64,000 nt of DNA from a virus: IMG/VR virus record IMGVR_UViG_3300015263_000653, positions 25,857 to 89,856 of that record; one strand, 5' to 3'. Within the stretch, counting starts at the first letter, position 1. Every line of letters begins with the position of its first letter. The translations under genes were made by a program, and so were the position numbers. Below the pieces are notes generated by a model. The model had not been told where the DNA came from. It ran no database searches and saw nothing but the letters and a program-made list of their open reading frames with translations. Shown here in pieces: positions 1 to 45,800 of this stretch.

Positions 1-25
1 CCCTCTAACACCCACTTGGAGGACA

Positions 26-184
26 ATGATGGAAGACGGGACAAGAGTGTATGTGCCAAGCGTTGGCAAGAGCGGAACGATGAAGTTCTCAGTGCCCGGC
101 AATGGCACGTTCCGCTGGTATATCGTCGAGTTCGACGACGGCACTGAGGATCGTTTTGTCCTTGAGGATTTGCAGCGGGAGTAA
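26..184 (+). CDS. Small hypothetical cassette protein (52 aa, MMEDGTRVYVPSVGK...LEDLQRE)
   Basis: Translated by hand; GGAGG just upstream; stop TAA is the first triplet of repeat 182. Confidence 0.75.
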   Translation: MMEDGTRVYVPSVGKSGTMKFSVPGNGTFRWYIVEFDDGTEDRFVLEDLQRE

Positions 185-232
185 CACCCGCTTGAGTCCT
201 GTACAACACACAACACCTTTTGGAGATCGCTG

Positions 233-547
233 ATGTTGACAGACGAACAAAAGAAAGAGCGTCGGTTTCTCAGTCACAACATTGAACTGGGACAACGGGG
301 CCGCAAGCGGATGCCGTTCAGCGAAGTCTGTATGCACATGCGGATCGCTGGCAAGTACATGGATTTCGAGTTGCTCAACAAGGAGTATCCCGGAGTCCAG
401 TTGTACGAAGACGGTCGCCCGTTCTCTGGCTCGATCACGACCGGCGAAGCTGGCATCTTCCATGACTCGGAGCGGGGATATTACTACTACCCCCACGAGT
501 ACAACGCCGAGAACATGGACGACGCCGCCGACAACCCGCCCAGTTGA
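233..547 (+). CDS. Hypothetical cassette protein (104 aa)
   Basis: TTTTGGAG RBS; stop TGA begins repeat 545. Confidence 0.85.
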   Translation: MLTDEQKKERRFLSHNIELGQRGRKRMPFSEVCMHMRIAGKYMDFELLNKEYPGVQLYEDGRPFSGSITTGEAGIFHDSERGYYYYPHEYNAENMDDAADNPPS

Positions 548-562
548 CACCCGCTTGAACCT

Positions 563-593
563 CACCTCAGTAACTCAAAGAGTTACTGAGGTG
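563..593. other. Perfect 14-bp hairpin CACCTCAGTAACTC-AAA-GAGTTACTGAGGTG
   Basis: Inverted repeat read directly; sister copy at 5328-5358. Confidence 0.9.
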
Positions 594-626
594 GACAACC
601 CCGAACCCATTTGGAGGAACACCCAC

Positions 627-830
627 TTGAAAGACAGAACAACCCTTGGCCTGATGGCAGCACTGCTGAGCATGGGCGGCATCATCCCGATGCCATCGTC
701 GGAACCTCGTCGCCGTGTGTATCGGTCGCCAGAGGAACGGCGAGACCTGAACGCCGTCAAGGCGGAAAAGAAGCGAAAGCGGAAGATTTCGCAGAAGTCC
801 CGCAAGGCCAATCGACGCAAGGCGGCATAA
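627..830 (+). CDS. Small protein with hydrophobic N-part and very basic C-terminus (67 aa, ends RRKAA)
   Basis: GGAGG then TTG start; stop begins repeat 828; start uncertain. Confidence 0.7.
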   Translation: MKDRTTLGLMAALLSMGGIIPMPSSEPRRRVYRSPEERRDLNAVKAEKKRKRKISQKSRKANRRKAA

Positions 831-880
831 CACCCGCTTGAACAACGTACAACACACAACACTTTCTGAGGAGATCGCTG

Positions 881-1273
881 ATGAGTTTCAAGTTTCGCCA
901 CGTTACCGTCAAGCTCGGCAACATGCGGAAAGAGGCCGAGTTCGTGGTCTGTCCGGTGAGCAATACCGCTCCCCATGAGATCACGATTCAGAGTGACAAG
1001 CGGATTGCCCGTGTCAATCTGGAGACGAAAAAGGTCATCGTGAGCGATGGCAAGGGCGGGCATCCGGGCTTCCACAAGCTGCAAGCGTTCTGTGGAGCGA
1101 AGGAATACGACGCCCCGCAAGACCTGCTCGACCAGTTGTCCGCACTGGAAGAGGATCACGGCCCGATGGAGTCTGGCCCGGTGGTTGTCATGGATGAGAA
1201 CGGCCCGGCCCCCAGCGTCCACGCTCGGCGTGAGACTGTCCCCAGCGGCCCGGTTTCCATCTTCGACCTGTAA
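881..1273 (+). CDS. Hypothetical cassette protein (130 aa)
   Basis: GAGGAG RBS; stop begins repeat 1271. Confidence 0.85.
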   Translation: MSFKFRHVTVKLGNMRKEAEFVVCPVSNTAPHEITIQSDKRIARVNLETKKVIVSDGKGGHPGFHKLQAFCGAKEYDAPQDLLDQLSALEEDHGPMESGPVVVMDENGPAPSVHARRETVPSGPVSIFDL

Positions 1274-1341
1274 CACCCGCTTGGAGACTGTGAGACAGGA
1301 GTGGCCTGTCTCACAGTCAATCCAACTTTTGGAGTGGACCA

Positions 1342-1665
1342 ATGGCGAAAGACAAGCCAAAGATTGAGATCAAGTATGCTGACCGTGTTGTCGGCAGCTA
1401 CACCCTGTACCGCTCAATGCCAAAGGGCGCACGAGTCACCCAATGGGGAACATTCTTCCCCGGTCAAGGCGAGGATGGTTATGGTCGCAAGATCACAACC
1501 GACATCATCTTGATTTTCAATGGCGAGAGCAAGCGGAAATACCGGGTCTATGCGACCTGCTTTTCCAACTGTGCAAGCCACTGGATCACCTATCAGGGGC
1601 AGACGTTGCACCTTGGCACTCACTTTCAGGATGAGATCAAGCCGGAAAGTGAGATCCCGAAGTAA
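1342..1665 (+). CDS. Hypothetical phage protein (107 aa; GYGRKITT...RVYATCFSN)
   Basis: TTTTTGGAG RBS after a 14-bp hairpin; stop begins repeat 1663. Confidence 0.85.
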   Translation: MAKDKPKIEIKYADRVVGSYTLYRSMPKGARVTQWGTFFPGQGEDGYGRKITTDIILIFNGESKRKYRVYATCFSNCASHWITYQGQTLHLGTHFQDEIKPESEIPK

Positions 1666-1717
1666 CACCCGCTTGGAAGGTGTCAGCAATGGGGCTGACA
1701 CCTTTCTGGAGAACACA

Positions 1718-2050
1718 ATGCACCAACTCGTTATCGCCCATCACCCGCAGGACGTTGACCCTTCCGCCCCGATGGCGGACTCGCCGTTCTGGGCGTGGCT
1801 GGAAGAACACCCGCTTTCAGTCTGTCACGTTGCACTGCTCAAGTATCTCGGAGCGGAGAATTATCCACGAGAGATGCGGCGTGGAATGCTCAACGAAACT
1901 GAGCACATGTGCTACAAGCACATCCATGCTCACTTTTGGTGGACTCGGTTGCGGCAGCCGAAACCGGTGGTTGAGAAGACCCCGGAGCCGATCACGCCCC
2001 CGGAGTTGATTTCAGTCATCAGCTTCGATGGCATCAAGCGGCTGGTCTGA
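1718..2050 (+). CDS. Hypothetical cassette protein (110 aa, His-rich)
   Basis: GGAG RBS and ATG at 1718; stop TGA begins repeat 2048. Confidence 0.8.
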   Translation: MHQLVIAHHPQDVDPSAPMADSPFWAWLEEHPLSVCHVALLKYLGAENYPREMRRGMLNETEHMCYKHIHAHFWWTRLRQPKPVVEKTPEPITPPELISVISFDGIKRLV

Positions 2051-2101
2051 CACCCGCTTGGAGAGTGTACAACACACAACACACTTTTGGAGATCGCCAT
2101 C

Positions 2102-2434
2102 ATGGCACGTTGCGAAGACTTCCCCTGCTGTGGGCATGAACCCGGATGCTGCCCGGACTACGATGAGTCGGGCCGTCAGTTGAACATGGTTTGCGTCTGT
2201 GGGGCAAAGCTGCCCATCGACAGCCGCTACTCGATCTGTGCGAGTTGTATGCGAGACCCGGACGACCCCGATTTCGACCGGGATTTCGATGACGACTTCG
2301 AGGATGACGAAGAGGATTTCGACGAAGAGGACGACTACGAGCGTCGTCAGGACGAGATTCTGGAGCGTCAGGAACTCGAAGACTTCGAGCAGGCCGACGA
2401 ATACTTCGGTGGCTACGGCGGGGAGGACTGGTAG
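2102..2434 (+). CDS. Cys-rich (putative Zn-binding) protein with highly acidic C-terminal half (110 aa)
   Basis: CEDFPCCGH, CVCG, CASC motifs then D/E tract; stop TAG overlaps repeat 2434. Confidence 0.85.
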   Translation: MARCEDFPCCGHEPGCCPDYDESGRQLNMVCVCGAKLPIDSRYSICASCMRDPDDPDFDRDFDDDFEDDEEDFDEEDDYERRQDEILERQELEDFEQADEYFGGYGGEDW

Positions 2435-2446
2435 GACACCCGCTTG

Positions 2447-2590
2447 GAATACACTGGGGGAGACCGGGTAAAACGCCTCGGTCCCCAACTATCAAACCTA
2501 AAGCGACCCGACAGGCCGCACCCGGTTCTCCCCCTTTGATTTACCTTTTTCGTCACTGGGCGACGGCGAATGTCCAGAACACAACGCCAG
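2447..2590 (+). ncRNA. Non-coding cassette, candidate structured small RNA
   Basis: No RBS-led ORF; GGGGGAGACCGGGT pairs with ACCCGGTTCTCCCCC, followed by a T-rich tract. Confidence 0.5.
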
Positions 2591-2639
2591 TAACACCCGC
2601 TTGGACAGCGGTAACACAACACAACTTTTGGAGTCAGCC

Positions 2640-2819
2640 ATGACACCGGCTCAACGTCAGCAGCGGCAAAACATTCGCAATGCGTATCTTGTGGCATCCA
2701 TCGAAGAGATGGAAGCTGGCAAGGCTCAACAGAACGATTTCGGCAAGAGCGTCCTGCAAGAGATGATCGACGAGTGCAAACAGCACGGCGTTGACAACTA
2801 TGGGAAGACTCCCCTCTAA
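2640..2819 (+). CDS. Small hypothetical cassette protein (59 aa)
   Basis: TTTTGGAG RBS; stop begins repeat 2817. Confidence 0.8.
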   Translation: MTPAQRQQRQNIRNAYLVASIEEMEAGKAQQNDFGKSVLQEMIDECKQHGVDNYGKTPL

Positions 2820-2868
2820 CACCCGCTTGGGGAGTGTACAACACACAACACCTTTTTCGGAGATCGTG

Positions 2869-3372
2869 ATGAAAACCGTCACACGTCAAAGCCAGTGGGG
2901 GACTGGCAACATGGTTGTCGAGATCAGCGATGGTGGGATTGACTACTGCAACCCCGATGCACTGTCCGCAAAGTATCGGGGCGAGTTCGAGGAATTTGCC
3001 GATCCTCGTGAGGCAGTGGAAACCGCTATCACCATCGCTCAACAGTGGCAGGCGGATGCTCCCGATAAGACCATCCTGATTGACCACGGTGGCACCGGTG
3101 GAATGACCATGCCATTCGATGGGATGGAACTGGGAGAGGAAACCTACACCGCTCTGAGGGAGTGGGCAAACAGCCAGTATGAGGAACTGGAGAAATGTTG
3201 CCGCTGTGGCGACATCCTCGGCAAAGAGCGATGGACACACCCGGAACTCTGCGAAGAGGAAAAGTTCTGCTCTGAGAACTGCTGTGACAACGCCTACTGG
3301 GACATGATGAAAGAACTCGAAGAGGAGGAGGAGGAGGAGGACGAGGATGAAGAAGTAGAGGACGACGAGTAA
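2869..3372 (+). CDS. Acidic protein with C-terminal Zn-finger-like motif and poly-E/D tail (167 aa)
   Basis: CCRCG...FCSENCC, EEEEEEEDEDEEVEDDE; stop begins repeat 3370. Confidence 0.85.
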   Translation: MKTVTRQSQWGTGNMVVEISDGGIDYCNPDALSAKYRGEFEEFADPREAVETAITIAQQWQADAPDKTILIDHGGTGGMTMPFDGMELGEETYTALREWANSQYEELEKCCRCGDILGKERWTHPELCEEEKFCSENCCDNAYWDMMKELEEEEEEEDEDEEVEDDE

Positions 3373-3440
3373 CACCCGCTTGGAAGGTGTCAGGCAGGAG
3401 AATGGGCCTGCCTGACACTTTTCACAACTCGGAGAACACC

Positions 3441-3647
3441 ATGCCAAAGGCGCAATCGCAGTACAAGCCTATCGGCCAGTATCGGTTTCCCGCAATGGGC
3501 GGGCCGACTGTGACCTATGGGCAGAAACCCTACTACGGCAGGCGGATGCAGTATTTGCCAGCCGTGAGAACGACAATGCTTCAAGTCCAAGTGATGGTTC
3601 TCGGCTCGTTGATGTGGATCAACGTGAGGCCCGAGGATCTGAAGTAA
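3441..3647 (+). CDS. Small hypothetical cassette protein (68 aa)
   Basis: GGAG RBS after hairpin; stop begins repeat 3645. Confidence 0.75.
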   Translation: MPKAQSQYKPIGQYRFPAMGGPTVTYGQKPYYGRRMQYLPAVRTTMLQVQVMVLGSLMWINVRPEDLK

Positions 3648-3697
3648 CACCCGCTTGGGTGATGTAACATCAGCAACCCCCGTAAGGGAGAAGAACA

Positions 3698-3847
3698 GTG
3701 CATTTCGACAAACGCAAGGCCAAACGTGCCGACAAACGACGCCGAGACAAGGAGATCGAGCGTTGCAAGAGGGAGCACGGGAATCGGGGTGAAAAGAACA
3801 CTCGGAAGCGTCCCCGATTCGACGAGTTTGACAGGGAAGCGGCGTAA
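3698..3847 (+). CDS. Small basic protein (49 aa, ends DREAA)
   Basis: Translated by hand from GTG after AAGGGAG; stop begins repeat 3845. Confidence 0.65.
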   Translation: MHFDKRKAKRADKRRRDKEIERCKREHGNRGEKNTRKRPRFDEFDREAA

Positions 3848-3896
3848 CACCCGCTTGGGGACTGTCAATCAACAATCCAACTTTTGGAATGAAGCC

Positions 3897-4082
3897 ATGA
3901 AGGTCGCCACGCATCGTTACCCCCGGACTGCTCAGGAGTCTCGGGAAGTCATCACCGACGTTGATTTCAGCGTCAAGGCCCGCAAGCGGAAGTTGCCCAA
4001 CTGCTGGGACGACAAGCCACGGGGAGACCACGATCACCGCTCGTGGAAGCGTCATCGCCGCAACCAGTGGAAGGCAGCCTAA
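3897..4082 (+). CDS. Small basic protein (61 aa, ends QWKAA)
   Basis: RYPRT, LPNCWDD, SWKRHRR; stop begins repeat 4080. Confidence 0.8.
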   Translation: MKVATHRYPRTAQESREVITDVDFSVKARKRKLPNCWDDKPRGDHDHRSWKRHRRNQWKAA

Positions 4083-4132
4083 CACCCGCTTGTAGGCTGT
4101 ACAACACACAACACCTTTTCAGGAGTCGAGCG

Positions 4133-4504
4133 ATGAACTTCGCCGTCAACACCAAAGACAGCATCTTGGCAACCTTGCGGGATGCGATTGATTTGCAGGA
4201 TTACATGGTCAAGGCCGACCACATTCTGGATGCCCTGATGACGACGGCAGGCGTCTGGACTGAGTGTGGCTATGCCTACAAGGCGACTGAGATCGCCAAT
4301 ATCATCGGCCAGCGGTTCACCGATGAGATCGGCAATTGCCATCACCACAAGACCCACGCCAAGATCGACACCATGCGGATCAAGGCGTACACCGTCGCCC
4401 GGTTCTTCTGTGAACAGCAGTACGAGTATCGGGAAGCCCAGCAAGCGGAGATCGACGCCATGTTGGGCATCGAACACAAGACCGATATGGAGCTTGCGAG
4501 CTAA
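4133..4504 (+). CDS. Hypothetical cassette protein (123 aa)
   Basis: AGGAG RBS; stop begins repeat 4502. Confidence 0.85.
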   Translation: MNFAVNTKDSILATLRDAIDLQDYMVKADHILDALMTTAGVWTECGYAYKATEIANIIGQRFTDEIGNCHHHKTHAKIDTMRIKAYTVARFFCEQQYEYREAQQAEIDAMLGIEHKTDMELAS

Positions 4505-4514
4505 CACCCGCTTG

Positions 4515-4585
4515 GAAGGTGTTGAGAGGGTGCTGTCTGGAGGCGACAGCCAAGTGTCACCCAGTCTCAGGTGAAACAGCCCGAT
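4515..4585 (+). ncRNA. Short non-coding cassette with nested stems
   Basis: TGAGA/TCTCA, GGGTG/CACCC and GCTGTC/GACAGC pairings; no ORF. Confidence 0.45.
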
Positions 4586-4616
4586 CAACACCCGCTTGTA
4601 AAGTGTCACCGGTGGC

Positions 4617-4824
4617 AAGGACGACCGGGGAGAACACTGAGACAACCGATTAGCCCACCGCTACCTACTGTCTTTACCGAAACTGCTGTGACAGCCGCCA
4701 GTCTGATGACGGGTTTACCGTACCTTGGCCGAGGCGTTGTCCACTGGAAACGGCGACAGCAAAAGTAGGCAGAGTGGACGGTGTGCGAATCGAGTCTCAG
4801 TGAAGTATCCCCGGTCCTCTCCTT
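4617..4824 (+). ncRNA. ~210-nt rod-like structured RNA cassette (6S-like architecture)
   Basis: Nested pairings AAGGA/TCCTT, GACCGGGGA/TCCCCGGTC, CACTGAGAC/GTCTCAGTG, CGATT/AATCG, CCAC/GTGG, CCTAC/GTAGG, TGCTGT/ACAGCA, GCCG/CGGC, CCAGT/ACTGG. Confidence 0.7.
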
Positions 4825-4873
4825 CAACACCCGCTTGTACAACGTAACAACAACACCTTCTGAGGGCCACAAG

Positions 4874-5014
4874 ATGAATCAGCGTCGGATCTACCAACTC
4901 ATGACGGAGTTGGGCAAGGAACTGGAGTCGTACAATCCGCCCGGCAATGTCAAGTTCAAGGCGGCAATCGCTGGCCTGCGAGCGGCCATCAAGAGTTTGC
5001 GAGTGTTCTTCTAA
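4874..5014 (+). CDS. Small hypothetical cassette protein (46 aa)
   Basis: GAGG RBS; stop begins repeat 5012. Confidence 0.75.
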   Translation: MNQRRIYQLMTELGKELESYNPPGNVKFKAAIAGLRAAIKSLRVFF

Positions 5015-5065
5015 CACCCGCTTGGACAACGTAACAACACAACCCACTTCTCAGGAGTTCACACG

Positions 5066-5299
5066 ATGAACCACAATCCCGGCGTCAACCGCATGAAGAA
5101 CATCGCCCGCAATGGCTTCCTGTCCTCGCTGGTCGCCAAGGCCCACGCCGGGCAGCGGCCCGACATCACCCTCAAGCCGAAGGGCGTCACCTGTGAGGAA
5201 CTGGAGAAGTACCTCAAGGCCAACAACTGCGGCTGGACCAAGCACGCTGGCGGACGGTATGTCATCGGCTCCCTGCGACCGGCCCGCAAGGCAGCGTAA
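5066..5299 (+). CDS. Small basic cassette protein (77 aa, ends ARKAA)
   Basis: AGGAG RBS; stop begins repeat 5297. Confidence 0.8.
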   Translation: MNHNPGVNRMKNIARNGFLSSLVAKAHAGQRPDITLKPKGVTCEELEKYLKANNCGWTKHAGGRYVIGSLRPARKAA

Positions 5300-5309
5300 C
5301 ACCCGCTTG

Positions 5310-5375
5310 GAGAGTGTCAGCCAACAACCCCTCAGTTACTCTTTGAGTAACTGAGGGGGAGCGGCTGGCCGGGAC
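5310..5375 (+). other. Non-coding cassette containing a perfect 14-bp hairpin (5328-5358)
   Basis: CCCCTCAGTTACTC-TTT-GAGTAACTGAGGGG inside an outer GTCAGCC/GGCTGGC stem. Confidence 0.8.
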
Positions 5376-5428
5376 CAACACCCGCTTGGACCGTGTTAAG
5401 ACCACAACACCTTTTTGGAGATCGAGTC

Positions 5429-6001
5429 ATGTTGAAGTTGTTTGTTCTGGAGTGCAGCACCGTCGAGGAACTGGAATCGGCAATGTCCCGCATGGGGCTG
5501 AGCAAGGTCAAGCCCGAACTGGCTGTGCTGGTCACGCCCGGTGGCAACGTCGAGGAGCCGACGCCAACGCCGCCTGCCCCCAAGGCTGACACCCGCTTGG
5601 AAAGTGTTGAGACGGAAACGACTCAACCGCCAGCCCCCAAGGCTGACGCCAAGCCGCCCCGCAAGTCGAAGCGGAAGGGTGGCGGGGGTGGCTTCCGCAA
5701 GGCAGCCCCCAAGACGTTCACCGATTTGTCGAAGCTGGAAGGCATCGGCATCTATCACAAGGCCGATGGCACGCAGAAGGTTGTGGGCATCATCGGACGG
5801 AGCGAAGGCAAGGGCGGCAACGCTGGTCACGAGATTCTGTGGCTCGGCAACGTCGAGCGGAAGGACGGCGAGATTGTGTGCTGGTCCTTCGCCAACGGCG
5901 ACCCGTGGACGCACAACGCCACCCGCTTCCCGGAAACGATCACCGATCTGGCCCCGTACAGCCCGGACTACGCCGAACTGCTGGTCGAGATGGTGGGCTA
6001 A
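5429..6001 (+). CDS. Hypothetical protein (190 aa) with Pro/Lys linker that reads through an internal array repeat
   Basis: TTTTTGGAG RBS; repeat 5587 is translated as ADTRLESV; stop begins repeat 5999. Confidence 0.8.
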   Translation: MLKLFVLECSTVEELESAMSRMGLSKVKPELAVLVTPGGNVEEPTPTPPAPKADTRLESVETETTQPPAPKADAKPPRKSKRKGGGGGFRKAAPKTFTDLSKLEGIGIYHKADGTQKVVGIIGRSEGKGGNAGHEILWLGNVERKDGEIVCWSFANGDPWTHNATRFPETITDLAPYSPDYAELLVEMVG

Positions 6002-6011
6002 CACCCGCTTG

Positions 6012-6099
6012 GAAAGTGTCGAGAGGGGGACGACAACCCCTCTCGCTCTTTCCTCTCTCTCACTCTCAACTGCGAGTGAGTGAGAGGGGAGAGACAGAC
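6012..6099 (+). other. Non-coding cassette with two hairpins
   Basis: CGAGAGGGG/CCCCTCTCG and TCCTCTCTCTCACTC...GAGTGAGTGAGAGGGGA. Confidence 0.6.
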
Positions 6100-6152
6100 T
6101 AACACCCGCTTGTAAGTTGTGAGAGGACACAACACTAACCGAAAGGGATCGA

Positions 6153-6611
6153 ATGCTGCAAGAGTTGAAAGGGATCGTCGAGGGCATGGGCAAGAGCAAA
6201 GCCAAGCCCGAACTGGTCGCTCTGATCGAGCGAGCCGAGACGCAAGGCCAAGCCGCTGATCCGAAGCGATGGGCCTATGCGGGAGTCACCTTGATGGCCG
6301 TGATGAGTGCTGGACTCAACGGCTACGCCAACGCACAGCACGCAACTGTGCCGATGGCAGGGTGGGCGATGGGGATTGCAATCCCCGCCATCGTCCTGAT
6401 CCTCGCCCGTGTGGCAGGGATCAACTGGAAGGCAGGACGCAAGGCGATGGCGAAGGCCGGGGCTGGCGTCGGCATCGGATTGCTTGTCTTGTCAGTGTGG
6501 CACTGTGCTACTAGCATCAGCCTGCTGACTGGCAGCCATGTGCTACTCGCACTGCCGATGGCACTGGCTATTGATGCGGGGCTGGTGTACTGCGAGTGCA
6601 ACACATTGTAA
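6153..6611 (+). CDS. Multi-pass membrane protein (152 aa)
   Basis: About four hydrophobic segments; stop begins last repeat 6609. Confidence 0.85.
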   Translation: MLQELKGIVEGMGKSKAKPELVALIERAETQGQAADPKRWAYAGVTLMAVMSAGLNGYANAQHATVPMAGWAMGIAIPAIVLILARVAGINWKAGRKAMAKAGAGVGIGLLVLSVWHCATSISLLTGSHVLLALPMALAIDAGLVYCECNTL

Positions 6612-6869
6612 CACCCGCTTGTATTATGTAAGAGGGACACATGACTCACTCGCTGAATCGCAGCGAGTGAGTGTGTTGCAAAAATTGTAATTGAGAAACT
6701 CTCAATTTTTTTTGTGCCATGTGGCCCATGGGGGAGGCACCCCCGCCGCTATGTCACCCCCCTCTCTTATATTAACAAGAAGAAATTTTTCAGACGCCTG
6801 CGCAGCAAAAACCGAAACTCCGAAACTTCTTTGGAGTGAGGCTATATCTCAGAAAAGGAGAAGAAAGCG

Positions 6870-10663: not shown

Positions 10664-10946
10664 GTCGATTCCTTTCTTTTCGCTTCCTTGCTCGAATGAA
10701 CAAGCCCAGAATAATTCCGAAGCTCACTGCCCCGGAGACGAAATGATGGAGGGGAACTGGCTCGACGGGATGTTCGAGGTAGTTCCGCCATCCTTGAAAC
10801 GCAATGATGCCGGGAATCTTGAAGACGCTGTAGACAAGCAGCATTCCCATGAAGAGGCCGACAGCATCCATGAGTCCTTTGATCGGCATGAACCATCTGT
10901 GGAAGATGACGGCAAGGACACCGATGAAGATGAAGTCAAAATTCAT
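10602..10946 (-). CDS. Membrane protein
   Basis: Three hydrophobic segments. Confidence 0.7.
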   Translation of the reverse strand: MNFDFIFIGVLAVIFHRWFMPIKGLMDAVGLFMGMLLVYSVFKIPGIIAFQGWRNYLEHPVEPVPLHHFVSGAVSFGIILGLFIRARKRKERNRREEMDSEGGILVQPQKSHGH

Positions 10947-11383
10947 AACTCTTTCCTCTGCAAATCGACCACGCAAGCGTGGTGCCCACGCTGGGCTTCA
11001 CCAAACGTGCGATAGCGATTGAAGGTGTATGTGGTTGGACCGAAGACCATTGTTTCAAACCAGTCCGGGCCGTCTCCCTCGTCGAAGTCGGCGGCGACCT
11101 TCGCCAGATGTTCTTGAGTGGCTCTTGGCAGGTGGGTCGTCTTAATATGTCGGGGCGTCGTGTAGCCGTTTAGTGGGACGACGCTGAAGATGGTGGAGAC
11201 TTCGTACTCACCGACTTGGGTTTTCTCAACTCGGAGGGCGTCTTCATGCTCCATCTGCCAGAAGATGGCTTCGATGAAGTGAACGGGAACGACTTGTTTG
11301 TTCTCGTCGAGGATCGCTGACATGAATGGTGGTTCGGGAACCATCTTCTTCATGTGGTCGATGAGTTCTTGTCTTTCATCCAT
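10943..11383 (-). CDS. Hypothetical phage protein
   Basis: VSTIF...FETMVFG...RY.T..EA..GH pattern seen in phage hypotheticals. Confidence 0.75.
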   Translation of the reverse strand: MDERQELIDHMKKMVPEPPFMSAILDENKQVVPVHFIEAIFWQMEHEDALRVEKTQVGEYEVSTIFSVVPLNGYTTPRHIKTTHLPRATQEHLAKVAADFDEGDGPDWFETMVFGPTTYTFNRYRTFGEAQRGHHACVVDLQRKEL

Positions 11384-17251: not shown

Positions 17252-17426
17252 CCGTTTCGCCTCCTTGCGGTTCTTCTCTGGAGTTGCATTCTCCTTTGTC
17301 GAGGTTCACATTCTTCTCAAGACCTTTGCGGCATCCGGCGAACTTGTCACGGCCATCGAGGCGAAATTTGCCATCGATATAGGCGGCGTGGGCACAACCG
17401 TCGCAAATGGTTTCGAGTTCGGTCAT
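17232..17426 (-). CDS. Small Cys-containing protein
   Basis: GGAGG RBS; coupled ORF. Confidence 0.6.
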   Translation of the reverse strand: MTELETICDGCAHAAYIDGKFRLDGRDKFAGCRKGLEKNVNLDKGECNSREEPQGGETDEQSKS

Positions 17427-18394
17427 TGGTCCTCCATTGCTTTCATCGAATCACGCATACGGCGAATCTCCCGAACGGCCTGATCGTCTTGGGCTTCAGT
17501 GGCGGCTCGTTCGAGAGCGTCAAGTTGTTCCATCATTTCTTCGGGGCTGGCGATGATCATCGGACTGCGAGCGGCCATTGCTTTCTCATAAGTGTCGGCC
17601 ATGTCGGTCATGAATTCCTCGAAGGAATTACCGATGGTCAGAACTTCCATGACGATGAAGTCTTGGTTGAGAAGTTGCCGACGAGTAGCGATCTCCATTT
17701 GCTTTGCGAACTTGGCGGGATCGGTGATCCCAAAGATTTTGAAAGCGGCTTGGGCTTGAGGGTCTTCGAAGATGCTGGGTTGCGCCATGATGGCTTTGAG
17801 TGAGCAGGGGACGATACCAGAGATCACGGCTTCCGGCACGTTGTTGTTAGCCCGAGCTTCTTCGAGTTCCTCTTCTTCCATGATGGGGCAATCGAGCATT
17901 TCTTGATTGTGCTCTGGCATCCAGTTGAACTCGACGCCGCCGTCTTTGCCGTGATAGTCGTATGGGTAGCTGCCCATGAAGAAGCGGCCATCTTCTGAGA
18001 GGTAATGGACGCAGAGGCAGTCGGCGATTTCGCCGAGAGAGCAGGCCCCTTCTTCGTCACATGCTCTCTGCATGGAGCCGGGTTTGCCAGCGTACTTCTC
18101 ATAGAGACGCTGGACTTCTTCGGGGCTCTTGCCGTTGGTGAGGATGGTATGTCCGTCTGTGACAAGAATGACGGAGTTGATACCCAAGCCACGCCGAAGA
18201 ATGTTGCAGGCGTTCAGCCCTTCGTACTTATCGAGTTGCGGGGCGACTACTAAGAGAGTCGGCTTCCCGTCTTTGATGCCAACGACAGTGGGGTTCATAT
18301 CGCCCCGCTGTGTTGAATGCACCCAAGCCATCTTATGATGTTTGGCGAGCCTCACGAACTCCTGAAAGTTGAAGAGCGTGGCGTCGGTGGTCAT
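17423..18394 (-). CDS. Hypothetical protein (323 aa)
   Basis: Long ORF with RBS. Confidence 0.85.
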   Translation of the reverse strand: MTTDATLFNFQEFVRLAKHHKMAWVHSTQRGDMNPTVVGIKDGKPTLLVVAPQLDKYEGLNACNILRRGLGINSVILVTDGHTILTNGKSPEEVQRLYEKYAGKPGSMQRACDEEGACSLGEIADCLCVHYLSEDGRFFMGSYPYDYHGKDGGVEFNWMPEHNQEMLDCPIMEEEELEEARANNNVPEAVISGIVPCSLKAIMAQPSIFEDPQAQAAFKIFGITDPAKFAKQMEIATRRQLLNQDFIVMEVLTIGNSFEEFMTDMADTYEKAMAARSPMIIASPEEMMEQLDALERAATEAQDDQAVREIRRMRDSMKAMEDQ

Positions 18395-18744: not shown

Positions 18745-19071
18745 TTACACCATGTCCTTGAGACCCTTGAGGGGTCGGACCTTGACGACGTTGCGTGCCG
18801 GTTTGGCGGGTCGGTCTTGCAGTTCGCCGGTGAAGGGGTTCTTGACGTTTTTCTGCGCCTTGACGGCGGGCTTGCGGACCCTGACGATTTTCACGAGGCC
18901 GGGAATGGTGAGTGCCCCGGCTCCTTTCCGTCCGCCGACTTCGGACTGAACGACGTTGACGAGGGCGTCGAAGACTTCGCCGACCTGTCGTTTGTTGAGT
19001 CCGGTTTGGTCAGCAATCTGCGTGAGTAGCTGCGTCTTCGTCAAGGGGCGATTCTCGGTTGCAGTCGCCAT
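18745..19071 (-). CDS. HU/IHF-family DNA-binding protein
   Basis: LTKTQLLTQIADQTGLNKRQV, IPGLVKI, KNPFTGE, KPARNVVKVRPLKGLKDMV; GGAGG RBS. Confidence 0.92.
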   Translation of the reverse strand: MATATENRPLTKTQLLTQIADQTGLNKRQVGEVFDALVNVVQSEVGGRKGAGALTIPGLVKIVRVRKPAVKAQKNVKNPFTGELQDRPAKPARNVVKVRPLKGLKDMV

Positions 19072-19194
19072 GGTCTGGGGTTCCTCCAAAGTGCCAAGTG
19101 TGAATACGATTGAGCAATACAATCGAGCCAAAAGCATTGTAAGGCACGGAATGAGGGCAGTAAAGCATAGATACTGAAAAACAGGAGGTTGTCA

Positions 19195-24911: not shown

Positions 24912-25973
24912 TCAAACAACCCAGTGTGGATTTTGTAAGGTCCAGTTCACGATGAGTTCTAAGCTTTCTCGGAACGTCATGGGTTGTTTCCAACCGGCCT
25001 CTGCCATCTTGGTTCCATCAAGGGCATAGCGTCGGTCATAGCCGGGTCTGGCTGATTCGCTGGGGATCAAACGATACTTCAAATCCTTGCCCATGATCTC
25101 AGCGACCATCTTGGCGAGTTGCAAGTTGTTGAGTTCTGTGTCGCCGCAGATGTTGTATCGATCTGGTCGTGAGTCACCGGTTTCTCCTCTCTGGACGAGA
25201 TCGAGGTAACGGGTCGGATTTCTTTTTGCCAGAAAGACGAGAGCGTCGGCCATGTTCTTAGCATGGAGATAGATGCGGCTGCCGATGGAATCTTCTGAGT
25301 CTCCATAGATCGGCATCTCTTCTCCCTTGGCGACCTTCTGGATGATCTTTGGCAAGAACTTCTCTGGGTCTTGTCGTTCTCCGATGATGTTCATCGTATT
25401 GGTCAGCACGATAGGCAGGTTGTATGTACGCCAGTAGCTAATAGCCATAGCTTCTTGTGCTGCCTTCGATGCTGCATATGGGTTCGATGGCAGAATGACA
25501 TCCCATTCTTTGTGGGCCGAGTCTGCCTTGGCTTCTCCATAAACTTCGTCGGTGCTGATTTGCACGAAGAGTTCGAGCCCTTTGCACTTGCGGGCGAACT
25601 CCAACATGTTGATAGCGAGGTGCCAGTTGTTATGAAGGCAGGAGACGGGATCGATGGTGGATCTCTCGACTGCACTTTCTGAGGCCATGTTGATGATGTA
25701 GTGAATCGGTTTTTCTCTGACGACTCCCCGATCATCGATCCATCGTTCGAAGATGAGGTTCTCCGTCTGTGGATCAATTGGCACAGAGAGATCGTGGATA
25801 ATAGTCGTGACTCTTGGGTTGTCTTGAGTGACTTCTGCGACTCGTCGGATGGTTCCTTTGTGTCGGAACGAGTCAAGGCAGATCAGTTCCCAGTCAGTGT
25901 GTTCCAAGAAGTATTGGAGGCAGTGGTGGCCCACGAAGCCGCCATGTCCGGTGAAAAGAACTCGTTTAGGCAT
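24912..25973 (-). CDS. dTDP-glucose 4,6-dehydratase-like NAD-dependent epimerase/dehydratase (RmlB-like)
   Basis: TGHGGFVG, QISTDEVYG, PSNPYAASKA, PEKFLP, RPGYDRRY. Confidence 0.9.
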   Translation of the reverse strand: MPKRVLFTGHGGFVGHHCLQYFLEHTDWELICLDSFRHKGTIRRVAEVTQDNPRVTTIIHDLSVPIDPQTENLIFERWIDDRGVVREKPIHYIINMASESAVERSTIDPVSCLHNNWHLAINMLEFARKCKGLELFVQISTDEVYGEAKADSAHKEWDVILPSNPYAASKAAQEAMAISYWRTYNLPIVLTNTMNIIGERQDPEKFLPKIIQKVAKGEEMPIYGDSEDSIGSRIYLHAKNMADALVFLAKRNPTRYLDLVQRGETGDSRPDRYNICGDTELNNLQLAKMVAEIMGKDLKYRLIPSESARPGYDRRYALDGTKMAEAGWKQPMTFRESLELIVNWTLQNPHWVV

Positions 25974-32341: not shown

Positions 32342-32647
32342 TTAAGCAGTTTCTTCGAGAAATTCTTTCAAGAAGATTCTGTAGACTGTGGCGTAGGCAA
32401 TTCCCCACTCTCGACTGTGGGCGTCCTTATTGTCATACCACGCCATTGTATGCGCCCACTCATGCAACAAAACGTCAATCGCTTCATGCTCGGGCAGATG
32501 CCGGTCAATGCGAATCAGATACCGCTCACTCGAACGACGACAATCCCCATCCAGATCTTTCGGCAAAGCAACACGACGGACGCTGACCGGCAAATCAGTG
32601 GAGAATCGTCTTTTGAGGAATAGGATGACACGTCTGTAAGTTCTCAC
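32342..32647 (-). CDS. Small zincin-like metallopeptidase (HEXXH)
   Basis: LLHEWAH...AH..EW. Confidence 0.75.
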   Translation of the reverse strand: MRTYRRVILFLKRRFSTDLPVSVRRVALPKDLDGDCRRSSERYLIRIDRHLPEHEAIDVLLHEWAHTMAWYDNKDAHSREWGIAYATVYRIFLKEFLEETA

Positions 32648-42835: not shown

Positions 42836-45800
42836 TTGGCAATCGATAACTTAGGCAGAGACACCGGCGAATTGAATGCAAGGTCACTGCTTTCCGGCCT
42901 CAACAAACAAGTTGGCGAGGTGATGGAAACCAGTGACTCTCGTAATTCGGGGAAGATGAACGATCTCCTCGAAGCCGTGAACAATCTGTCTGATGTCATC
43001 GGTGACAACCTTAATGAATCATCCAGAGAAGCGAGCGGCTACGCCCAGCAAATCATCTCTGCTTTCGAGAACATCCACAAGAGAGAAGCTCGCCAAGATC
43101 GCAATCAATCCGACGCCTCAGCAGCTTATGCCAAGAAAGGCGTCGATCTCATTGAGCGTATCTACAAGATGGGTAAGTCCCCAAGAACCTTCTGGGTTGG
43201 TTTGGGACATCTACATCCCACTGCCGTCAGTCAGTTCCAGAAGATTCTGAAGGACTGCGGATTGTGCAGGAGCGGTGCGTCAAATGTTGCCGAGAGCATC
43301 AAAGAATCTGTGCTTCGCAGAAGTGCAGGATCAGGTGGTCGTGGCACGGGACCACTGGGAGATGTCATGAGCGGCCCAGCCGGTGGTGTAATGGGCGGCG
43401 GACCCGGTGGCATGGGATTTATGGTCGCAGCAAAGGGCATCACGGCTGCGGTTCACTTGCTTACAGCAGCATCTCAGAGATTGATGAATGCCTTCAATGT
43501 CAATGTCATGAATGCCTTCGATGGCGTCTTGTCACAAAGCAATGCGTTCCGTGAAAGAATCAGAGCTATTGTTTATGAAACGAGAGGCTTCGGTGATCTG
43601 AACAGAGATATTGAGAAACAATACACAAACATCACCGCCGCTGTTTCGGCTACAGGAGTGCAACGAGGAAAATTCCAGCAAGTCTGGGTTGGAAACCTCC
43701 AGCGAGGCTTGGTGATGGAGAATGCTCTGTCTGAAGCTGGTAAAGAATACAACAAACTCATGACTGATCGCATCAAGAAGACGATGCGAGTGCAAACGAC
43801 TGCGATGCACACAGCCATGCAGCTTAACATGAGCGTCGATAACATGAACAACTTGTTCATGGATTGGCGTATGCACCTCGGCATGGGTGTGCTTGAGATC
43901 CAATCAATGGGTCGAGGGATGCAGGATGTCGCCCGTGCCACCGGACTCACTGGAGCCGAGCTTGAAAAAGCTGTCAAGGCCACCGACCAGATCATGAAGA
44001 AGATGAAGAATGCTGGTCGTCTTTCGGCTGAATCTGCCAAGGCTGTGATGGGAATGATGGCAGCGGCACAGAAGTATGGTGTCGGCGACCAAATGGGCAA
44101 GATGATGGAAGCCCTCTCCAGTCCTCGTGGGTTCCTTGAGGCCAGCAACCAGATGAAGGTTTTGTTGCTCCGTTCGGCACAATTGAGTGGCGATAACGGA
44201 CTCGCCCAACGTGTGATGTTTGGTCAGGCCACAAGTGCCCAAGATCTGAACAACTTGGCAAAGGGTTTTGAAGAGAACATGCGTCGGACGCTGAAGGGCT
44301 TCGGCATCGACGATGATTATTTGAAGATGCAGCTTGGCATCGAAGGCGGTTTGGACATGACCAACTTGAGTGGCATGATCCAAGAAATGGAACGTCTCGA
44401 TCCGGCCAAAGCTCGCCATCTCCAGTTGACGCTTGAGCAAGCTTATGGAATGGGCATCGGAGAAATCGAACAGTTGTCGAAGGCCATGGCTGAAGCTGCC
44501 GAAGCAAACAAGCCATTCGGCGAACGCATCGACAAGATGACGCAAGAACTCAGAGACATGGAACGAGCAGGCATGGGTGCCAGCGATGCGGCCAATGAAC
44601 TCCGTGCTCGACTCCAAGAAACAAACACATCTGCTCTTCAGGATGGTTTTACTGCTTGGCAGAAAGCTATTCAGAGAAGCAATGGCGACATGGTTGCAGC
44701 CCAACGAGACTTGGAGCAGCGACTTCAGAGTTCAATGGGTCCAGAGATGGCCCGAGAATTCGCTGCAAACATTGGCGGAAAAGCGGGCGAACTTCTCGAT
44801 GATTTGAGAGCAAGAGCGGCAGCACAAGGTAAAGACCTTGACGCTCTTCTGCAAAAACGTGGCTTCAACATGGCTCAAATCAAAAGAGCGATGACGAGTG
44901 GCACCGCAGAAGAGATGGAAAACGCCATGTCCATTCTGAACGAAGCTCAGCAAGAGATCGGCAGAAAGGAACGTGAAGGCCAAGATCCGATCACGGAAAT
45001 CCGTGGACAGATCGTGGATATCAATAACAAGCTCGGATCGATTGCTGACAGCATTCTGTTCGCAATCCCCAACATGTTAATGAAGATCATCTTCTGGACG
45101 GCCACTATCGGCGGTGTTATTACATCGCTTTTGGCCTTCTTCATGAGCGGGGCATGGCTGGCAGGTCTCTTCAGTGGTGCTGGCATTCCCGGTGGCGGCG
45201 GCTTGATGGGAATGCTTGGCGGTGGCGGGGGCCTCATGGGAGGCGTCGGCGGCGGTGGCGGATTAGCTGCCGGTGCTTCAATTGCAGGAGCCATTGCTGC
45301 TCCAATCATGGCCCTTGTCGGTGCCGTCAAAGGATTCTCTGAGGCCGAAGAAGCTGGCCGTACCAAACTGGGCGGCACACTGTTGGGAATTCTTACAGGT
45401 GGTGCTGGAACAGGTGGCGGCTTAGTTGGAAAAATGTTTGGGACAGAGGAAGGGACTGGAGCCGACAAAGCGGCAGGCGTGGCAACTGCTGGTTTGTGGG
45501 GTGCGGGTCTTGGTGCAGCGATTGGTACTGCCATTGCTCCCGGTATCGGTACGGCCATTGGAGCCGCAATTGGCGGTGTGGTCGGAATGGGAACTCAGTT
45601 CCTCAAGATCATCACAGCAGGCACGACAATCCTTGAAGATCTGCTGCAACCATTCCAGATTTTGATCACTTACGTCACAGAAAACCTGAAGGACGTATGG
45701 GCGATCATTAAGGCAATCTTCAGCTTTGATCTCGGAACCATCATGGACAGTGTGCTCAACATCATTGGGCGGACGATCATGTTGATCCCGAGCTTGATCT

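Follow-up and report, generated by a model that had tools for sequence, protein, structure and literature searches.

The window (64,000 nt; positions 25,857–89,856 of virus contig G000, G000:C1:25857-89856) opens with the 6.7-kb right end (1–6713, + strand) of an array of small genes and non-coding modules, each headed by the same short repeat. The whole array occupies 32.5 kb of the 89.9-kb contig (first core at 743, last at 32467), in a very large phage, probably of Planctomycetota. It carries 104 same-strand copies of T(A/G)ACACCCGCTTG, or one per 310 bp: 89 exact cores and 15 with one mismatch, all on the + strand. A preliminary description of the window had counted 24 near-identical same-strand sites and supposed that the array runs on past the left edge, and both points hold: 24 + strand matches to YRACACCCGCTTG (at most one mismatch) lie between 6 and 6621, against a chance expectation of 0.29 and a count reached in 0/100 shuffles, and copies on the contig begin at 743. 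As it had also noted, there is no copy elsewhere; none was found at this threshold in 6622–64000, and the remaining 57 kb of the contig lack the repeat, which is thus confined to the array.

A position matrix over the 104 copies gives the full site as R-ACACCCGCTTG, N5, then Y-R-T, with a purine at +17 in 100/104 copies. The core and five-letter spacer described earlier stand, while the third element, first read as YGT, becomes Y-R-T. Downstream lies a C/A-rich leader or a hairpin and then a GGAG-type RBS; upstream, a stop codon begins exactly at position -2 in 71/104 copies. The units in the window are as follows.

6–18, +: repeat copy TAACACCCACTTG, one mismatch
26–184, +: cassette ORF, 52 aa; short leader, SD from repeat +10; stop within the next repeat
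182–194, +: repeat copy
233–547, +: cassette ORF, 104 aa; TGA within the next repeat
545–557, +: repeat copy, TGA form
558–616, +: conserved palindromic hairpin CTCAGTAACTC-aaa-GAGTTACTGAG, z -6.4
617–629, +: degenerate repeat copy GAACACCCACTTG; core ACACCCACTTG at 619
654–830, +: cassette ORF, 58 aa, Lys/Arg-rich
828–840, +: repeat copy
881–1273, +: cassette ORF, 130 aa
1271–1283, +: repeat copy; leader hairpin from +13
1342–1665, +: cassette ORF, 107 aa
1663–1675, +: repeat copy; leader hairpin from +10
1718–2050, +: cassette ORF, 110 aa; internal degenerate core ACACCCGCTTT at 1807
2048–2060, +: repeat copy, TGA form
2102–2434, +: cassette ORF, 110 aa, acidic tail; TAG abutting the next repeat; homologues in arrays L186, L139 and L136
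2434–2446, +: repeat copy GGACACCCGCTTG
2447–2590, +: RNA-only cassette, 144 nt, z -3.4; 56-nt deletion in one relative
2591–2603, +: repeat copy
2640–2819, +: cassette ORF, 59 aa
2817–2829, +: repeat copy
2869–3372, +: cassette ORF, 167 aa, Cys-rich, acidic tail
3370–3382, +: repeat copy; 18-bp leader hairpin from +9
3441–3647, +: cassette ORF, 68 aa
3645–3657, +: repeat copy
3698–3847, +: cassette ORF, 49 aa, GTG start
3845–3857, +: repeat copy
3897–4082, +: cassette ORF, 61 aa
4080–4092, +: repeat copy
4133–4504, +: cassette ORF, 123 aa; homologues in arrays L142 and L186
4502–4514, +: repeat copy
4515–4585, +: non-coding cassette, 71 nt, as stable as shuffles (z 0.0)
4586–4598, +: repeat copy, CAA form, behind a non-coding unit
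4599–4824, +: RNA-only cassette, 226-nt rod, z -5.2
4825–4837, +: repeat copy, CAA form
4874–5014, +: cassette ORF, 46 aa
5012–5024, +: repeat copy
5066–5299, +: cassette ORF, 77 aa
5297–5309, +: repeat copy
5310–5375, +: RNA-only cassette with conserved CAGTTACTC/GAGTAACTG palindrome, z -6.4
5376–5388, +: repeat copy, CAA form
5429–6001, +: cassette ORF, 190 aa, reading in frame through copy 5587
5587–5599, +: repeat copy within this ORF
5999–6011, +: repeat copy
6012–6099, +: RNA-only cassette, two strong hairpins, z -5.4
6100–6112, +: repeat copy
6153–6611, +: last cassette ORF, 152 aa
6609–6621, +: last repeat copy of the array
6622–6688, +: terminal non-coding unit, a 12-bp hairpin followed by GTGTTGCAAAAATTGTAAT, an array-end element shared with metagenome array L143
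6689–6713, +: intrinsic terminator closing the array, stem TTGAGA/TCTCAA and T8

All 17 ORFs had been said to end at the next repeat; 16 do, with a stop built into or abutting it, and the exception is 5429–6001, which passes through copy 5587 to stop at the repeat after it; this copy and a short hairpin are flanked by two 15-bp direct repeats GCCCCCAAGGCTGAC. The five RNA-only units first taken to be structured are all present, and four outdo their shuffles in folding (z -3.4, -5.2, -6.4 and -5.4), whereas 4515–4585 does not. Cargo is mutually unrelated, as proposed, with no BLASTP pair at E<1e-3 among 67 G000 cassette proteins, and these have almost no Pfam matches.

The 12-letter core, N5 and Y-R-T head gene and RNA units in three further settings. 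G001, a second giant-phage contig (239 kb) with no nucleotide similarity and three weak protein matches to G000, has nine exact copies placed in the same way; metagenome contigs, no fewer than 46 of them (GC 39–58%), contribute 398 unique sites with an invariant 12-mer; and Planctomycetota chromosomes carry 8–12-kb islands, two of them in cultured Pirellulaceae, with 11–15 copies each. Novipirellula rosea JCM 17759 and Roseiconus nitratireducens JC645 are among the bearers of such an island. Within three host genomes (7.7–10 Mb) the motif occurs only in the island, and the number of matches with at most one mismatch is that of the control; the repeat is not a host regulon. Its orientation is strictly that of the genes, and it also precedes a tRNA gene in array L173 as well as a conserved ncRNA with a terminal stem and U-run of its own.

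Cassettes are exchanged at the repeat. Among 276 internal ends of homology blocks between related arrays, 51% fall within -20 to +30 of a motif, against 10.6% for random positions. Relatives in another study's sequencing runs lack single cassettes cut out at the motif: cassette 4515–4585 and one repeat copy are absent in runs X3 and X4, and the entire cassette of ORF 4874–5014 is absent in the X3 relative, where the right breakpoint is the next repeat. Several arrays share cassette proteins in differing order, and a cassette of G000 shows 63% identity to one from a chromosomal island.

The earlier description had offered three roles for the repeat: promoter, RNA-processing site or recombination site. 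The sequence evidence favors the first, and exchange is real without calling for a dedicated recombinase; the repeat is probably a compact, lineage-specific promoter that is also a recombination hot spot. It would stand at the 5' end of each expression unit (a small ORFan gene, a tRNA or ncRNA gene, or a hairpin module) of a hyperplastic accessory-gene array. It would be self-sufficient on its upstream side, since the ORF before it extends into the repeat and takes its stop codon from the repeat's opening letters.

We infer transcription initiation at the repeat, its position and its reader from several features. Repressor and immunity-type operator sites diverge fast among relatives and promoter-polymerase pairs do not, so a core conserved without common descent of its flanks counts for a promoter. 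About 8–10 strong hairpin-plus-T-run terminators end 0–12 nt upstream of a motif; behind them follow motif, SD, ATG and ORF, with the motif as the only shared element, and since the downstream gene needs a promoter of its own, this points to the motif. The same is suggested by three syntenic Planctomycetota islands whose first cassette lies at a divergent junction: conservation is lacking on the upstream side and synteny begins at the motif, the only conserved element there. Its placement ahead of tRNA and ncRNA units also argues for a promoter, as does the scarcity of sigma-70-like sites, of which 20 kb of the G000 array hold two on the + strand, both weak, and four on both strands (7.2 ± 2.6 in shuffles). 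The core itself is kept free of other signals, again as for a promoter: leader hairpins start at +8 to +18 and almost never pair with it (of about 100, four start before +8 and none before +6), and no SD sequence extends leftward past a sharp boundary at +9/+10, with 28/359 cassettes placing theirs at +9 to +16.

The RNA 5' end would lie at the 3' edge of the core, around G+10, or alternatively at the conserved purine +17. Hairpins and SDs point to a start near +10 and the fixed N5 spacer and Y-R-T to +17; both candidates, T9|G10 and Y16|R17, satisfy the Y(-1)R(+1) rule. Against a promoter count the lack of -35/-10 architecture readable by a known sigma, motifs that lead into a hairpin- or terminator-only module and then another motif, and the copy in frame within an ORF. 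So does the search for a reader, which turned up no signature of a T7-type or multisubunit polymerase in G000, in G001 or at the metagenome loci, and no protein family common to all arrays. Sigma-family genes do occur in relatives, among them a region-2-only sigma in G001 whose gene itself sits behind a motif.

The reader is probably the host core RNA polymerase with a phage- or island-encoded specificity factor; a phage polymerase is the other candidate. Phage sigma-family factors can work without a -35 reader, as do T4 gp55, with its late promoter TATAAATA, and SPO1 gp28 and gp34. The likeness lies in one rigid element kept lineage-wide regardless of host GC, in a host core polymerase with canonical intrinsic terminators, and in the sigma-family proteins of relatives. 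However, G000 has no known sigma gene, nothing in the site looks like a -10 element, the G001 sigma is itself motif-led, and the cargo is accessory or early rather than late. The late promoter of the AR9 non-virion RNA polymerase, 5'-A(-11)ACA-(6N)-U-A/G(+1) (PMC7598289; PMC5449584; PMC9209446), is similarly compact, within about -11 to +1 and without a -35 element. G000 AACA-CCCGCT-T-G (AACA-N6-T-G) fits it letter by letter, which would place +1 where hairpins and SDs begin. Unlike here, AR9 promoters depend on uracil-containing DNA and on a multisubunit phage polymerase that includes gp226, and genes for such a polymerase were not found in our elements; AR9 sites drive late genes; all six "N" positions are invariant in our repeat; and relatives begin with G, not A.

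The strongest alternative, though unlikely, is that the repeat acts in RNA, on long array transcripts, as a signal for endoribonuclease cleavage or for reinitiation or mRNA stability coupled to translation termination; a cut by a phage or host enzyme would leave a 5' hairpin on each cassette. In all lineages, about two thirds of the copies that follow an ORF have a stop codon overlapping or touching the core, a near-obligatory contact that a promoter does not demand and that suits such a signal. A ribosome at termination spans some 12 nt past the stop, and this footprint would be the core. Hairpins directly 3' of the core could serve as protective 5' stems, some non-coding modules with paired ends have a motif on both sides, and orientation is always that of the genes. 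Yet some copies lie directly behind strong intrinsic terminators, copies behind non-coding modules keep the core despite the missing stop, and the core does not fold by itself and matched no Rfam family. A promoter would moreover still be needed, with no usable sigma-70 promoter in 20 kb of array and no conserved one upstream of the first cassettes at divergent junctions.

It is less probable still, and doubtful, that the repeat binds a DNA-binding regulator, either an L5-like roadblock or silencer or an activator box, that switches the array while promoters lie elsewhere. Stoperators of mycobacteriophage L5 and cluster A are 13-bp asymmetric repressor sites, about 25–35 per genome in both arms, which vary with immunity group and stop transcription. 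The repeat shares their many 13-bp asymmetric copies, their single transcription-relative orientation and their place in tiny gaps overlapping stop codons, an anatomy that Brown et al. are said to have described for L5 in 1997. Silent chromosomal islands hold 11–15 copies, G is enriched at +13 to +15, and there is a weak dyad tendency, ACACCC-N7-GGGTGT, but its right arm is poorly conserved. In contrast to stoperators, the sites lie in one array only, can follow terminators and are invariant from 39 to 58% GC over phages and islands alike, where immunity-type operators diverge. Separate promoters are not visible in 20 kb of array, and units behind terminators would be left without one.

A dedicated integron- or Xer-like site, at which a tyrosine recombinase moves cassettes, is very improbable. 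In its favor, the repeat is the endpoint of indels and swaps, its copies are exactly identical over only 13–32 nt, one copy and its hairpin lie between direct repeats, and island-type arrays include XerC/D-like tyrosine recombinase genes. Against it, there are no paired inverted core sites or symmetric Xer/Int arms, and the recombinase is one cassette among others, not found in the 67 G000 cassettes or most phage-type arrays, with no outside integrase and attI. Integrons likewise have co-oriented, unrelated single-gene cassettes gained and lost whole at a repeated separating site. attC sites are imperfect palindromes of 57–141 bp with R''/L''-L'/R' boxes, read as folded single strands by IntI near attI and Pc; all of this is absent here. 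Homology alone, moreover, predicts mosaic boundaries at shared linkers, as for PeSLs (PMC2839356).

Returning to a promoter that also serves exchange, the closest known analogue is the promoter-early stem-loop (PeSL) cassette of T4-type phages (Arbiol et al., 2010, PMC2839356; Comeau et al., 2014, PMC4122927). Both are short repeated regulatory cassettes between small non-essential ORFans in hyperplastic regions, both form terminator-promoter composites, and both mark the endpoints of indels and replacements between relatives. PeSLs combine a strong sigma-70-like promoter with a stem-loop terminator and occur in tens of copies that vary by phage group, whereas our repeat is a GC-rich 12-mer without sigma-70 features, has a built-in stop codon and an optional stem-loop, and exceeds 100 copies while staying invariant over a very broad lineage.

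Early host-takeover or anti-defense cargo, as first suggested, finds support only in relatives, which encode ArdC-like, WGR-PARP and AAA+ proteins and a sigma factor, in keeping with a promoter; the window's own 17 proteins are ORFans. The proposal of a modular expression and exchange system is supported, with the motif kept in unrelated relatives and cassette gain and loss ending at the core. Exact identity between copies (median best 18 nt, maximum 32) offers little homology for general recombination, which weighs against our explanation. All units share their first 13–30 letters, so recombination between copies would delete, insert and swap them whole, in the manner of the T4-type PeSLs.

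The repeat array is a real, very strong and widespread feature. In its degenerate 13-letter form the repeat occurs 24 times in the window, from 6 to 6621 and always on the + strand, against 0.29 expected by chance, and it is absent from the remaining 57 kb, in keeping with a preliminary description made from the sequence alone. That description also had the array continuing left of the window, and a scan of the whole source contig (G000, an IMG/VR virus contig of 89,856 bp whose right part is the window) bears this out: copies begin at G000 743, and the 11-letter core ACACCCGCTTG is present in 89 exact and 15 one-mismatch copies, all on the + strand, from 743 to 32467, with 29-838 nt from repeat to repeat. 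Because the contig end cuts the array, its length is at least 32 kb, and with a CheckV completeness of 18% for G000 the whole genome may be about 500 kb.

In a position matrix of these 104 copies, the stretch from -1 (a purine in every copy) through +10 is invariant; weaker conservation follows at +11/+12 and at +16 to +20 (Y-R-T-M-A), with a purine at +17 in 100 copies. The T found at -2 in 85 of the 104 makes a TAA or TGA stop codon for the preceding ORF: in 71 cases an upstream ORF of 50 codons or more has its stop beginning exactly at -2. After a non-coding unit, the letter at -2 is C, A or G. The window array holds 17 ORFs of 46-190 aa, all first described as stopping at the next repeat. 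This is true of 16, which end in or against it, but not of ORF 5429-6001, which reads in frame through the copy at 5587. Five units are non-coding, as had been noted, and four of the five fold much better than shuffled controls; for one, the proposed structure did not hold. The array is higher in GC than the structural region (0.55-0.59 vs 0.47-0.53) and has a strong A>T skew. Further features of the array in the window are as follows.

Window 89-6205, minus strand: long antisense ORFs, up to 344 aa, across the array
Window 5572-5649: motif copy and short hairpin, in frame within ORF 5429-6001, flanked by 15-bp direct repeats GCCCCCAAGGCTGAC
Window 6673-6691: array end conserved with position ~1830 (oriented) of L143, a metagenome array locus of a phage with 40% GC; last motif, then GTGTTGCAAAAATTGTAAT(Y)(R)AGAAACT
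Window 6689-6713: hairpin and intrinsic terminator at the array terminus

The antisense ORFs are spurious, since the skew leaves the coding strand T-poor. The arrangement at 5572-5649 resembles a scar left by illegitimate recombination through the motif's TGAC. A/T-rich strings akin to the array-end element, ACAAWWTTTGGAG and CCAAAAWTTGTA, recur immediately 5' of many SDs.

Scanning the contig and related genomes for the motif, as had been suggested, recovered it in a second giant phage, in at least 46 metagenome arrays and in islands of Planctomycetota. The IMG/VR scan with TAACACCCGCTTGG gave one true relative, the giant-phage contig G001, against 106 chance matches, and a scan with GACACCCGCTTG-N5-TGT gave nothing beyond single chance matches. 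G001 (238,888 bp, 46% complete) carries nine exact copies on one strand between 3.1 and 28.3 kb, where, as in G000, a stop codon precedes the core and leader, SD and ATG follow it; the two contigs share no nucleotide similarity and three weak protein matches. Its genes behind the motif encode a WGR-PARP ADP-ribosyltransferase, AAA+ ATPases, a sigma-70 region-2 protein and an ArdC-like anti-restriction protein, and its large ORFs encode replication, ligase, PrkA and lectin-type proteins. When JGI metagenome contigs were scanned for two cores 311-341 nt apart, at least 80 loci matched, and 46 of the 80 listed are true one-strand arrays, from many habitats and with a GC of 0.39-0.58. The consensus of 398 unique metagenome sites is (T/A)G-ACACCCGCTTG-WWRRN-T-G-T-R-A, and stops touch the core in these arrays as overlapping TGA, TAG or TAA-G. 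Loci in which the period is 164 or 69 nt and the core is preceded by 'CC' or 'GG' are satellites of no relation to the arrays; the 11-mer occurs in them by chance, and they constitute false positives for motif-keyed searches:

L134, L140, L152, L168, L171, L175, L201 and others, and L196: chance satellites (GC-rich tandem, marine metagenomes)

The same paired-core search across prokaryotes, with one genome per species, identified six true arrays, all in Planctomycetota; five tandem-repeat loci were set aside as chance matches. Two carriers are cultured Pirellulaceae, Novipirellula rosea JCM 17759 and Roseiconus nitratireducens JC645, and another array is on a MAG contig of 3.7 Mb. These genomes have a syntenic island of 8-12 kb marked by 11-15 motif copies, in which every gene stands behind a motif:

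G002:C6:99.7-107.7 kb: island of Novipirellula rosea
G003:C30:2.7-11 kb: island of Roseiconus nitratireducens
G004:C11:3.072-3.080 Mb: island of a third genome

The islands encode an ArdC-like protein, a RuvB-like AAA+ protein, a XerC/D-like tyrosine recombinase and ~8 small uncharacterised proteins, the conserved ones of which match no Pfam family or known domain. They are embedded in defence islands comprising BREX (PglZ, methylase), type I restriction (HsdR) and CBASS-type (SMODS) genes, and could be integrative elements or phage satellites. A sigma-54 activator gene adjoins the N. rosea island and is absent as a conserved neighbour in the others. The motif is a property of mobile elements rather than of a host regulon: outside the island it occurs at control level in three host genomes of 7.7-10 Mb, one mismatch allowed, and the cluster is found in only 1-2 of 401 sampled Planctomycetota genomes. 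Phages and islands also share cargo. An MFD chromosomal-island cassette is 63% identical to a G000 cassette, and G001 (locus L115; 826-3093 and 26630-28294) has the island's first gene (ArdC-like) immediately next to its last two, which encode proteins of 170 aa and 234 aa (the latter a zinc-ribbon protein) with 45-55% identity to the island versions; it also has its WGR-PARP gene behind a motif. Given this shared cargo, the host phylum of G000 is very probably Planctomycetota.

The repeat is also where arrays differ from one another. Comparing cassette order and content between relatives, a check proposed at the outset, places both indels and the ends of homology at the core: in pairwise comparisons of related arrays (78-99% identity), 51% of 276 internal homology-block ends fall within -20 to +30 of a motif, vs 10.6% for random positions, the left ends immediately preceding the core and the right ends immediately following it. 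Contigs of a ~90-95% identical phage, from runs X3 and X4 of a different study, differ from G000 by whole cassettes. This relative is without the 71-nt unit 4515-4585 plus one repeat copy, and without the cassette of ORF 4874-5014, where the right breakpoint lies two letters before the next repeat. Homologous cassettes moreover have different neighbourhoods in different arrays. The repeat is thus the place of cassette gain, loss and replacement. The XerC/D-like recombinase genes of island-type arrays might point to a dedicated site-specific recombination system acting there, but the site has no attC or Xer architecture, most arrays carry no recombinase and those of the islands are internal cassettes, so that we regard such a system as unlikely. 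Repeat copies share only short exact matches (best match 18 nt in the median, 32 nt at most), suggesting that exchange is either a rare, microhomology-type recombination or protein-aided.

As first described, the cargo is mutually unrelated: the 67 cassette proteins of G000 have no detectable similarity to each other, and a Pfam search returned two marginal matches and no recombinase. Outside the array, the window has genes for a myovirus-type tail and baseplate, for a tape measure protein, for auxiliary enzymes and for a virion protein that many cyanomyoviruses share; no tRNA gene was found in the window. Some hairpin-only and terminator-only modules carry their own motif copy. Inside hairpin-only modules behind the motif, we observed a perfect palindrome, CAGT(A/G)ACTC-NNN-GAGT(T/C)ACTG (CAGTAACTC-N3-GAGTTACTG), with stems of 13-19 bp. 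We also observed a conserved ncRNA cassette with paired ends, GAGAG..GAGCAGGGGGATAAAGG..GTTGTGTACAGACTGTTGGGCATG.., which in AT-richer phages has a terminal stem and U-run immediately before the next motif.

Window 566-592 and 5331-5357: palindrome
G000 23.89k, 24.23k and 24.70k: palindrome
L144 ~6080; L149 ~3320 and ~3600; L173 ~2200; L162 ~2300; L186 ~4100: palindrome in metagenome arrays
G000 10851-11044, left of the window: conserved ncRNA cassette
L144 ~1187; L173 ~2896; L183 ~3345; L203: conserved ncRNA cassette in metagenome arrays

The palindrome keeps its sequence as well as its fold across phages differing in GC, which suggests that it is bound by a dimeric protein or forms a specific RNA hairpin. 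Rfam 15 gave no match at E<=1 across the 33-kb array.

Several features of the units point to transcription initiating at the motif. At ~8-10 of 508 sites, a strong hairpin and T-run terminator lies 0-12 nt upstream of the motif, which is followed by leader, SD and ORF, and the last gene of the island has the same terminator-motif-gene layout; for most copies, a stop codon adjoins the motif and a stem-loop is absent upstream. Any gene that follows a terminator requires a promoter of its own, and nothing but the motif is conserved there, which argues that the motif stands at the 5' end of its unit. The first cassette of each island sits at a divergent junction where the 95-260 nt upstream are unrelated between islands and synteny starts at the motif. 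RNA genes also stand behind it, namely one tRNA gene and the conserved ncRNA ending in its own stem and U-run. Across 20 kb of the G000 array the coding strand has two weak sigma-70-like sites, fewer than shuffled sequence. Since upstream of -2 lies the unconserved coding sequence of unrelated genes, the whole signal is contained in about 22 nt.

The leaders suggest where RNA would begin. Strong leader hairpins of many unrelated sequences start at +8 to +18 (4 of about 100 before +8, none before +6) and almost never pair with the core. The SD, whose modal position is +37, has a hard left limit at +9/+10, and 28 of 359 cassettes, with a short leader, have their sole SD at +9 to +16. These limits argue for an RNA 5' end at about +8 to +10, where T9|G10 satisfies the pyrimidine-purine start-site rule. 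A start at +17 is an alternative suggested by the fixed five-letter spacer and the conserved Y16-R17-T18, seven letters past the core, like the -10-to-+1 distance; it would cut off the SD of the short-leader cassettes, and we therefore favour a putative start at +10. Of the roles initially considered for the repeat (promoter, RNA-processing site or recombination site), sequence features favour the first, and the third survives as a recombination boundary without a probable dedicated recombinase. Our best reading is that the repeat would be a new, compact type of promoter that doubles as a cassette boundary for modular exchange. The near-obligatory contact between stop codon and core, the motif-bearing hairpin-only and terminator-only modules and the conserved palindrome do not follow from a promoter.

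The closest functional parallel is with T4-type phages, where PeSL-rich hyperplastic regions use repeated regulatory cassettes to express and shuffle small accessory genes (PMC2839356, PMC4122927). Here too a repeated intergenic cassette lies among small variable genes, and indels of relatives end at it. In contrast to PeSLs, the position matrices contain no sigma-70-type -35/-10 pair and the array is poor in sigma-70-like sites, the stem-loop is optional, the repeats are far denser and more rigid, and the repeat itself contains the stop codon. The array thus appears to function like PeSL regions, yet is not strict PeSL. In geometry, the site resembles the late-promoter consensus of the AR9 non-virion RNA polymerase, A(-11)ACA-6N-U-A/G(+1) (PMC7598289). 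The G000 site AACA-CCCGCT-T-G fits this consensus with +1 at G10, and relatives have GACA; the split beta/beta'-like RNA polymerase subunits were not found in the incomplete genomes G000 and G001. L5 stoperators are also asymmetric 13-bp sites, intergenic and in one orientation to transcription. Here, however, the core does not vary among the 46 arrays, G001 and the islands, no repressor was found and the position differs too; invariance across very different composition argues for a constrained transcription factor rather than a repressor-operator pair.

The sigma-70, sigma-54 and ECF promoter types do not fit. A sigma-70 promoter is a TTGACA-N16-18-TATAAT-like pair, and the site matrices contain no such pair. 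The sigma-54 consensus is TGGCAC-N5-TTGC, with GG and GC exactly 10 bp apart; the site reads TGACAC-N4-TTG(W), one letter short and with both key dinucleotides changed. ECF promoters pair an AAC box with a CGT box at a distance of about 16-17 bp, the spacer being variable, whereas the AC-to-YGT distance here is only 12-14 bp and the spacer invariant. Resemblances to sigma-32 sites, the MotA box and boxA were dropped for wrong spacing or missing partner elements. An integron is rejected, as there is no adjacent intI/attI/Pc, none of the 67 G000 cassettes holds a recombinase and those of the islands are internal; attC sites are 57-141-bp imperfect inverted repeats (R''/L'' + L'/R'), whereas here ~22 nt are conserved with a weak ACA/TGT dyad only. 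The mycobacteriophage start-associated sequence is a 13-bp motif 3-8 bp before the start codon that includes the RBS, from which the present motif is separate, and CRISPR arrays have a regular period and short non-coding spacers, whereas these copies lie 29-838 nt apart with ORFs between them.

The RNA polymerase that the preliminary description proposed seeking in the rest of the genome did not turn up in G000, G001 or the metagenome loci by Pfam and motif patterns. PF00940 (T7-like RNA polymerase) had no match in G000 or G001, in a search without a working positive control, and PF00562 (beta/beta') had none in either while controls gave matches, the genomes being only 18% and 46% complete. 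Across ~780 kb of lineage sequence the D[FY]DGD catalytic loop is in no real ORF and T7 motifs B and C are absent. A DFDGD match in L149 is due to chance, as it sits in a long antisense ORF, an artefact of the T-poor sense strand, and the 1763-aa ORF 42836-48127 encodes a tape measure protein rather than a polymerase. No sigma domain was found in G000. G001 has two sigma-70-family genes, one of which lies in a motif cassette and has region 2 alone, the other having regions 2 and 4, and L143 has an RpoD-like gene (1074-1937, + strand; regions 2 and 4) ~5 kb past the array end on the opposite strand, adjoining a homologue of G000 44601-44993 (window 18745-19137). No relationship was detected between the sigma proteins of G001 and L143, or between these and window ORF 17423-18394, and no protein family is common to all arrays. 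Since intrinsic terminators are canonical, sigma genes occur and the islands are without a polymerase, the most economical guess is that the site would be read by the host core polymerase with a putative specificity factor; a divergent phage polymerase is possible, the genomes being incomplete. A fuller scheme, which we consider rather improbable, would make the 12-mer a new promoter class, -35-less and read AR9-style at -11 to +1 by a putative factor shared across the lineage and acting on a host or highly divergent polymerase. The islands (ArdC, RuvB-like protein, recombinase; 11-15 copies, no visible reader) would then be satellites or parasites switched on only when a phage supplies the factor.

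To our knowledge, gene expression of Planctomycetota phages, and of huge phages generally, is almost unstudied; our literature search found the motif only in unrelated PCR primers and no paper on Planctomycetes phage promoters. The repeat provides a sharply defined cis-element of 22 bp with an invariant 12-bp core that occurs naturally hundreds of times, with protein, tRNA and ncRNA genes, and its occurrence in two cultured Pirellulaceae makes the question of its reader directly testable. If a promoter, it would be an orthogonal expression signal ready for use in a phylum for which few genetic tools exist. The motif is also a search key for a fast-evolving, probably anti-defence, accessory gene pool that virus-detection pipelines miss in metagenomes: only 2 of about 50 array contigs are present in IMG/VR. 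Our findings extend PeSL-style modular shuffling to a distant phage lineage, where the punctuation is far denser and more rigid.
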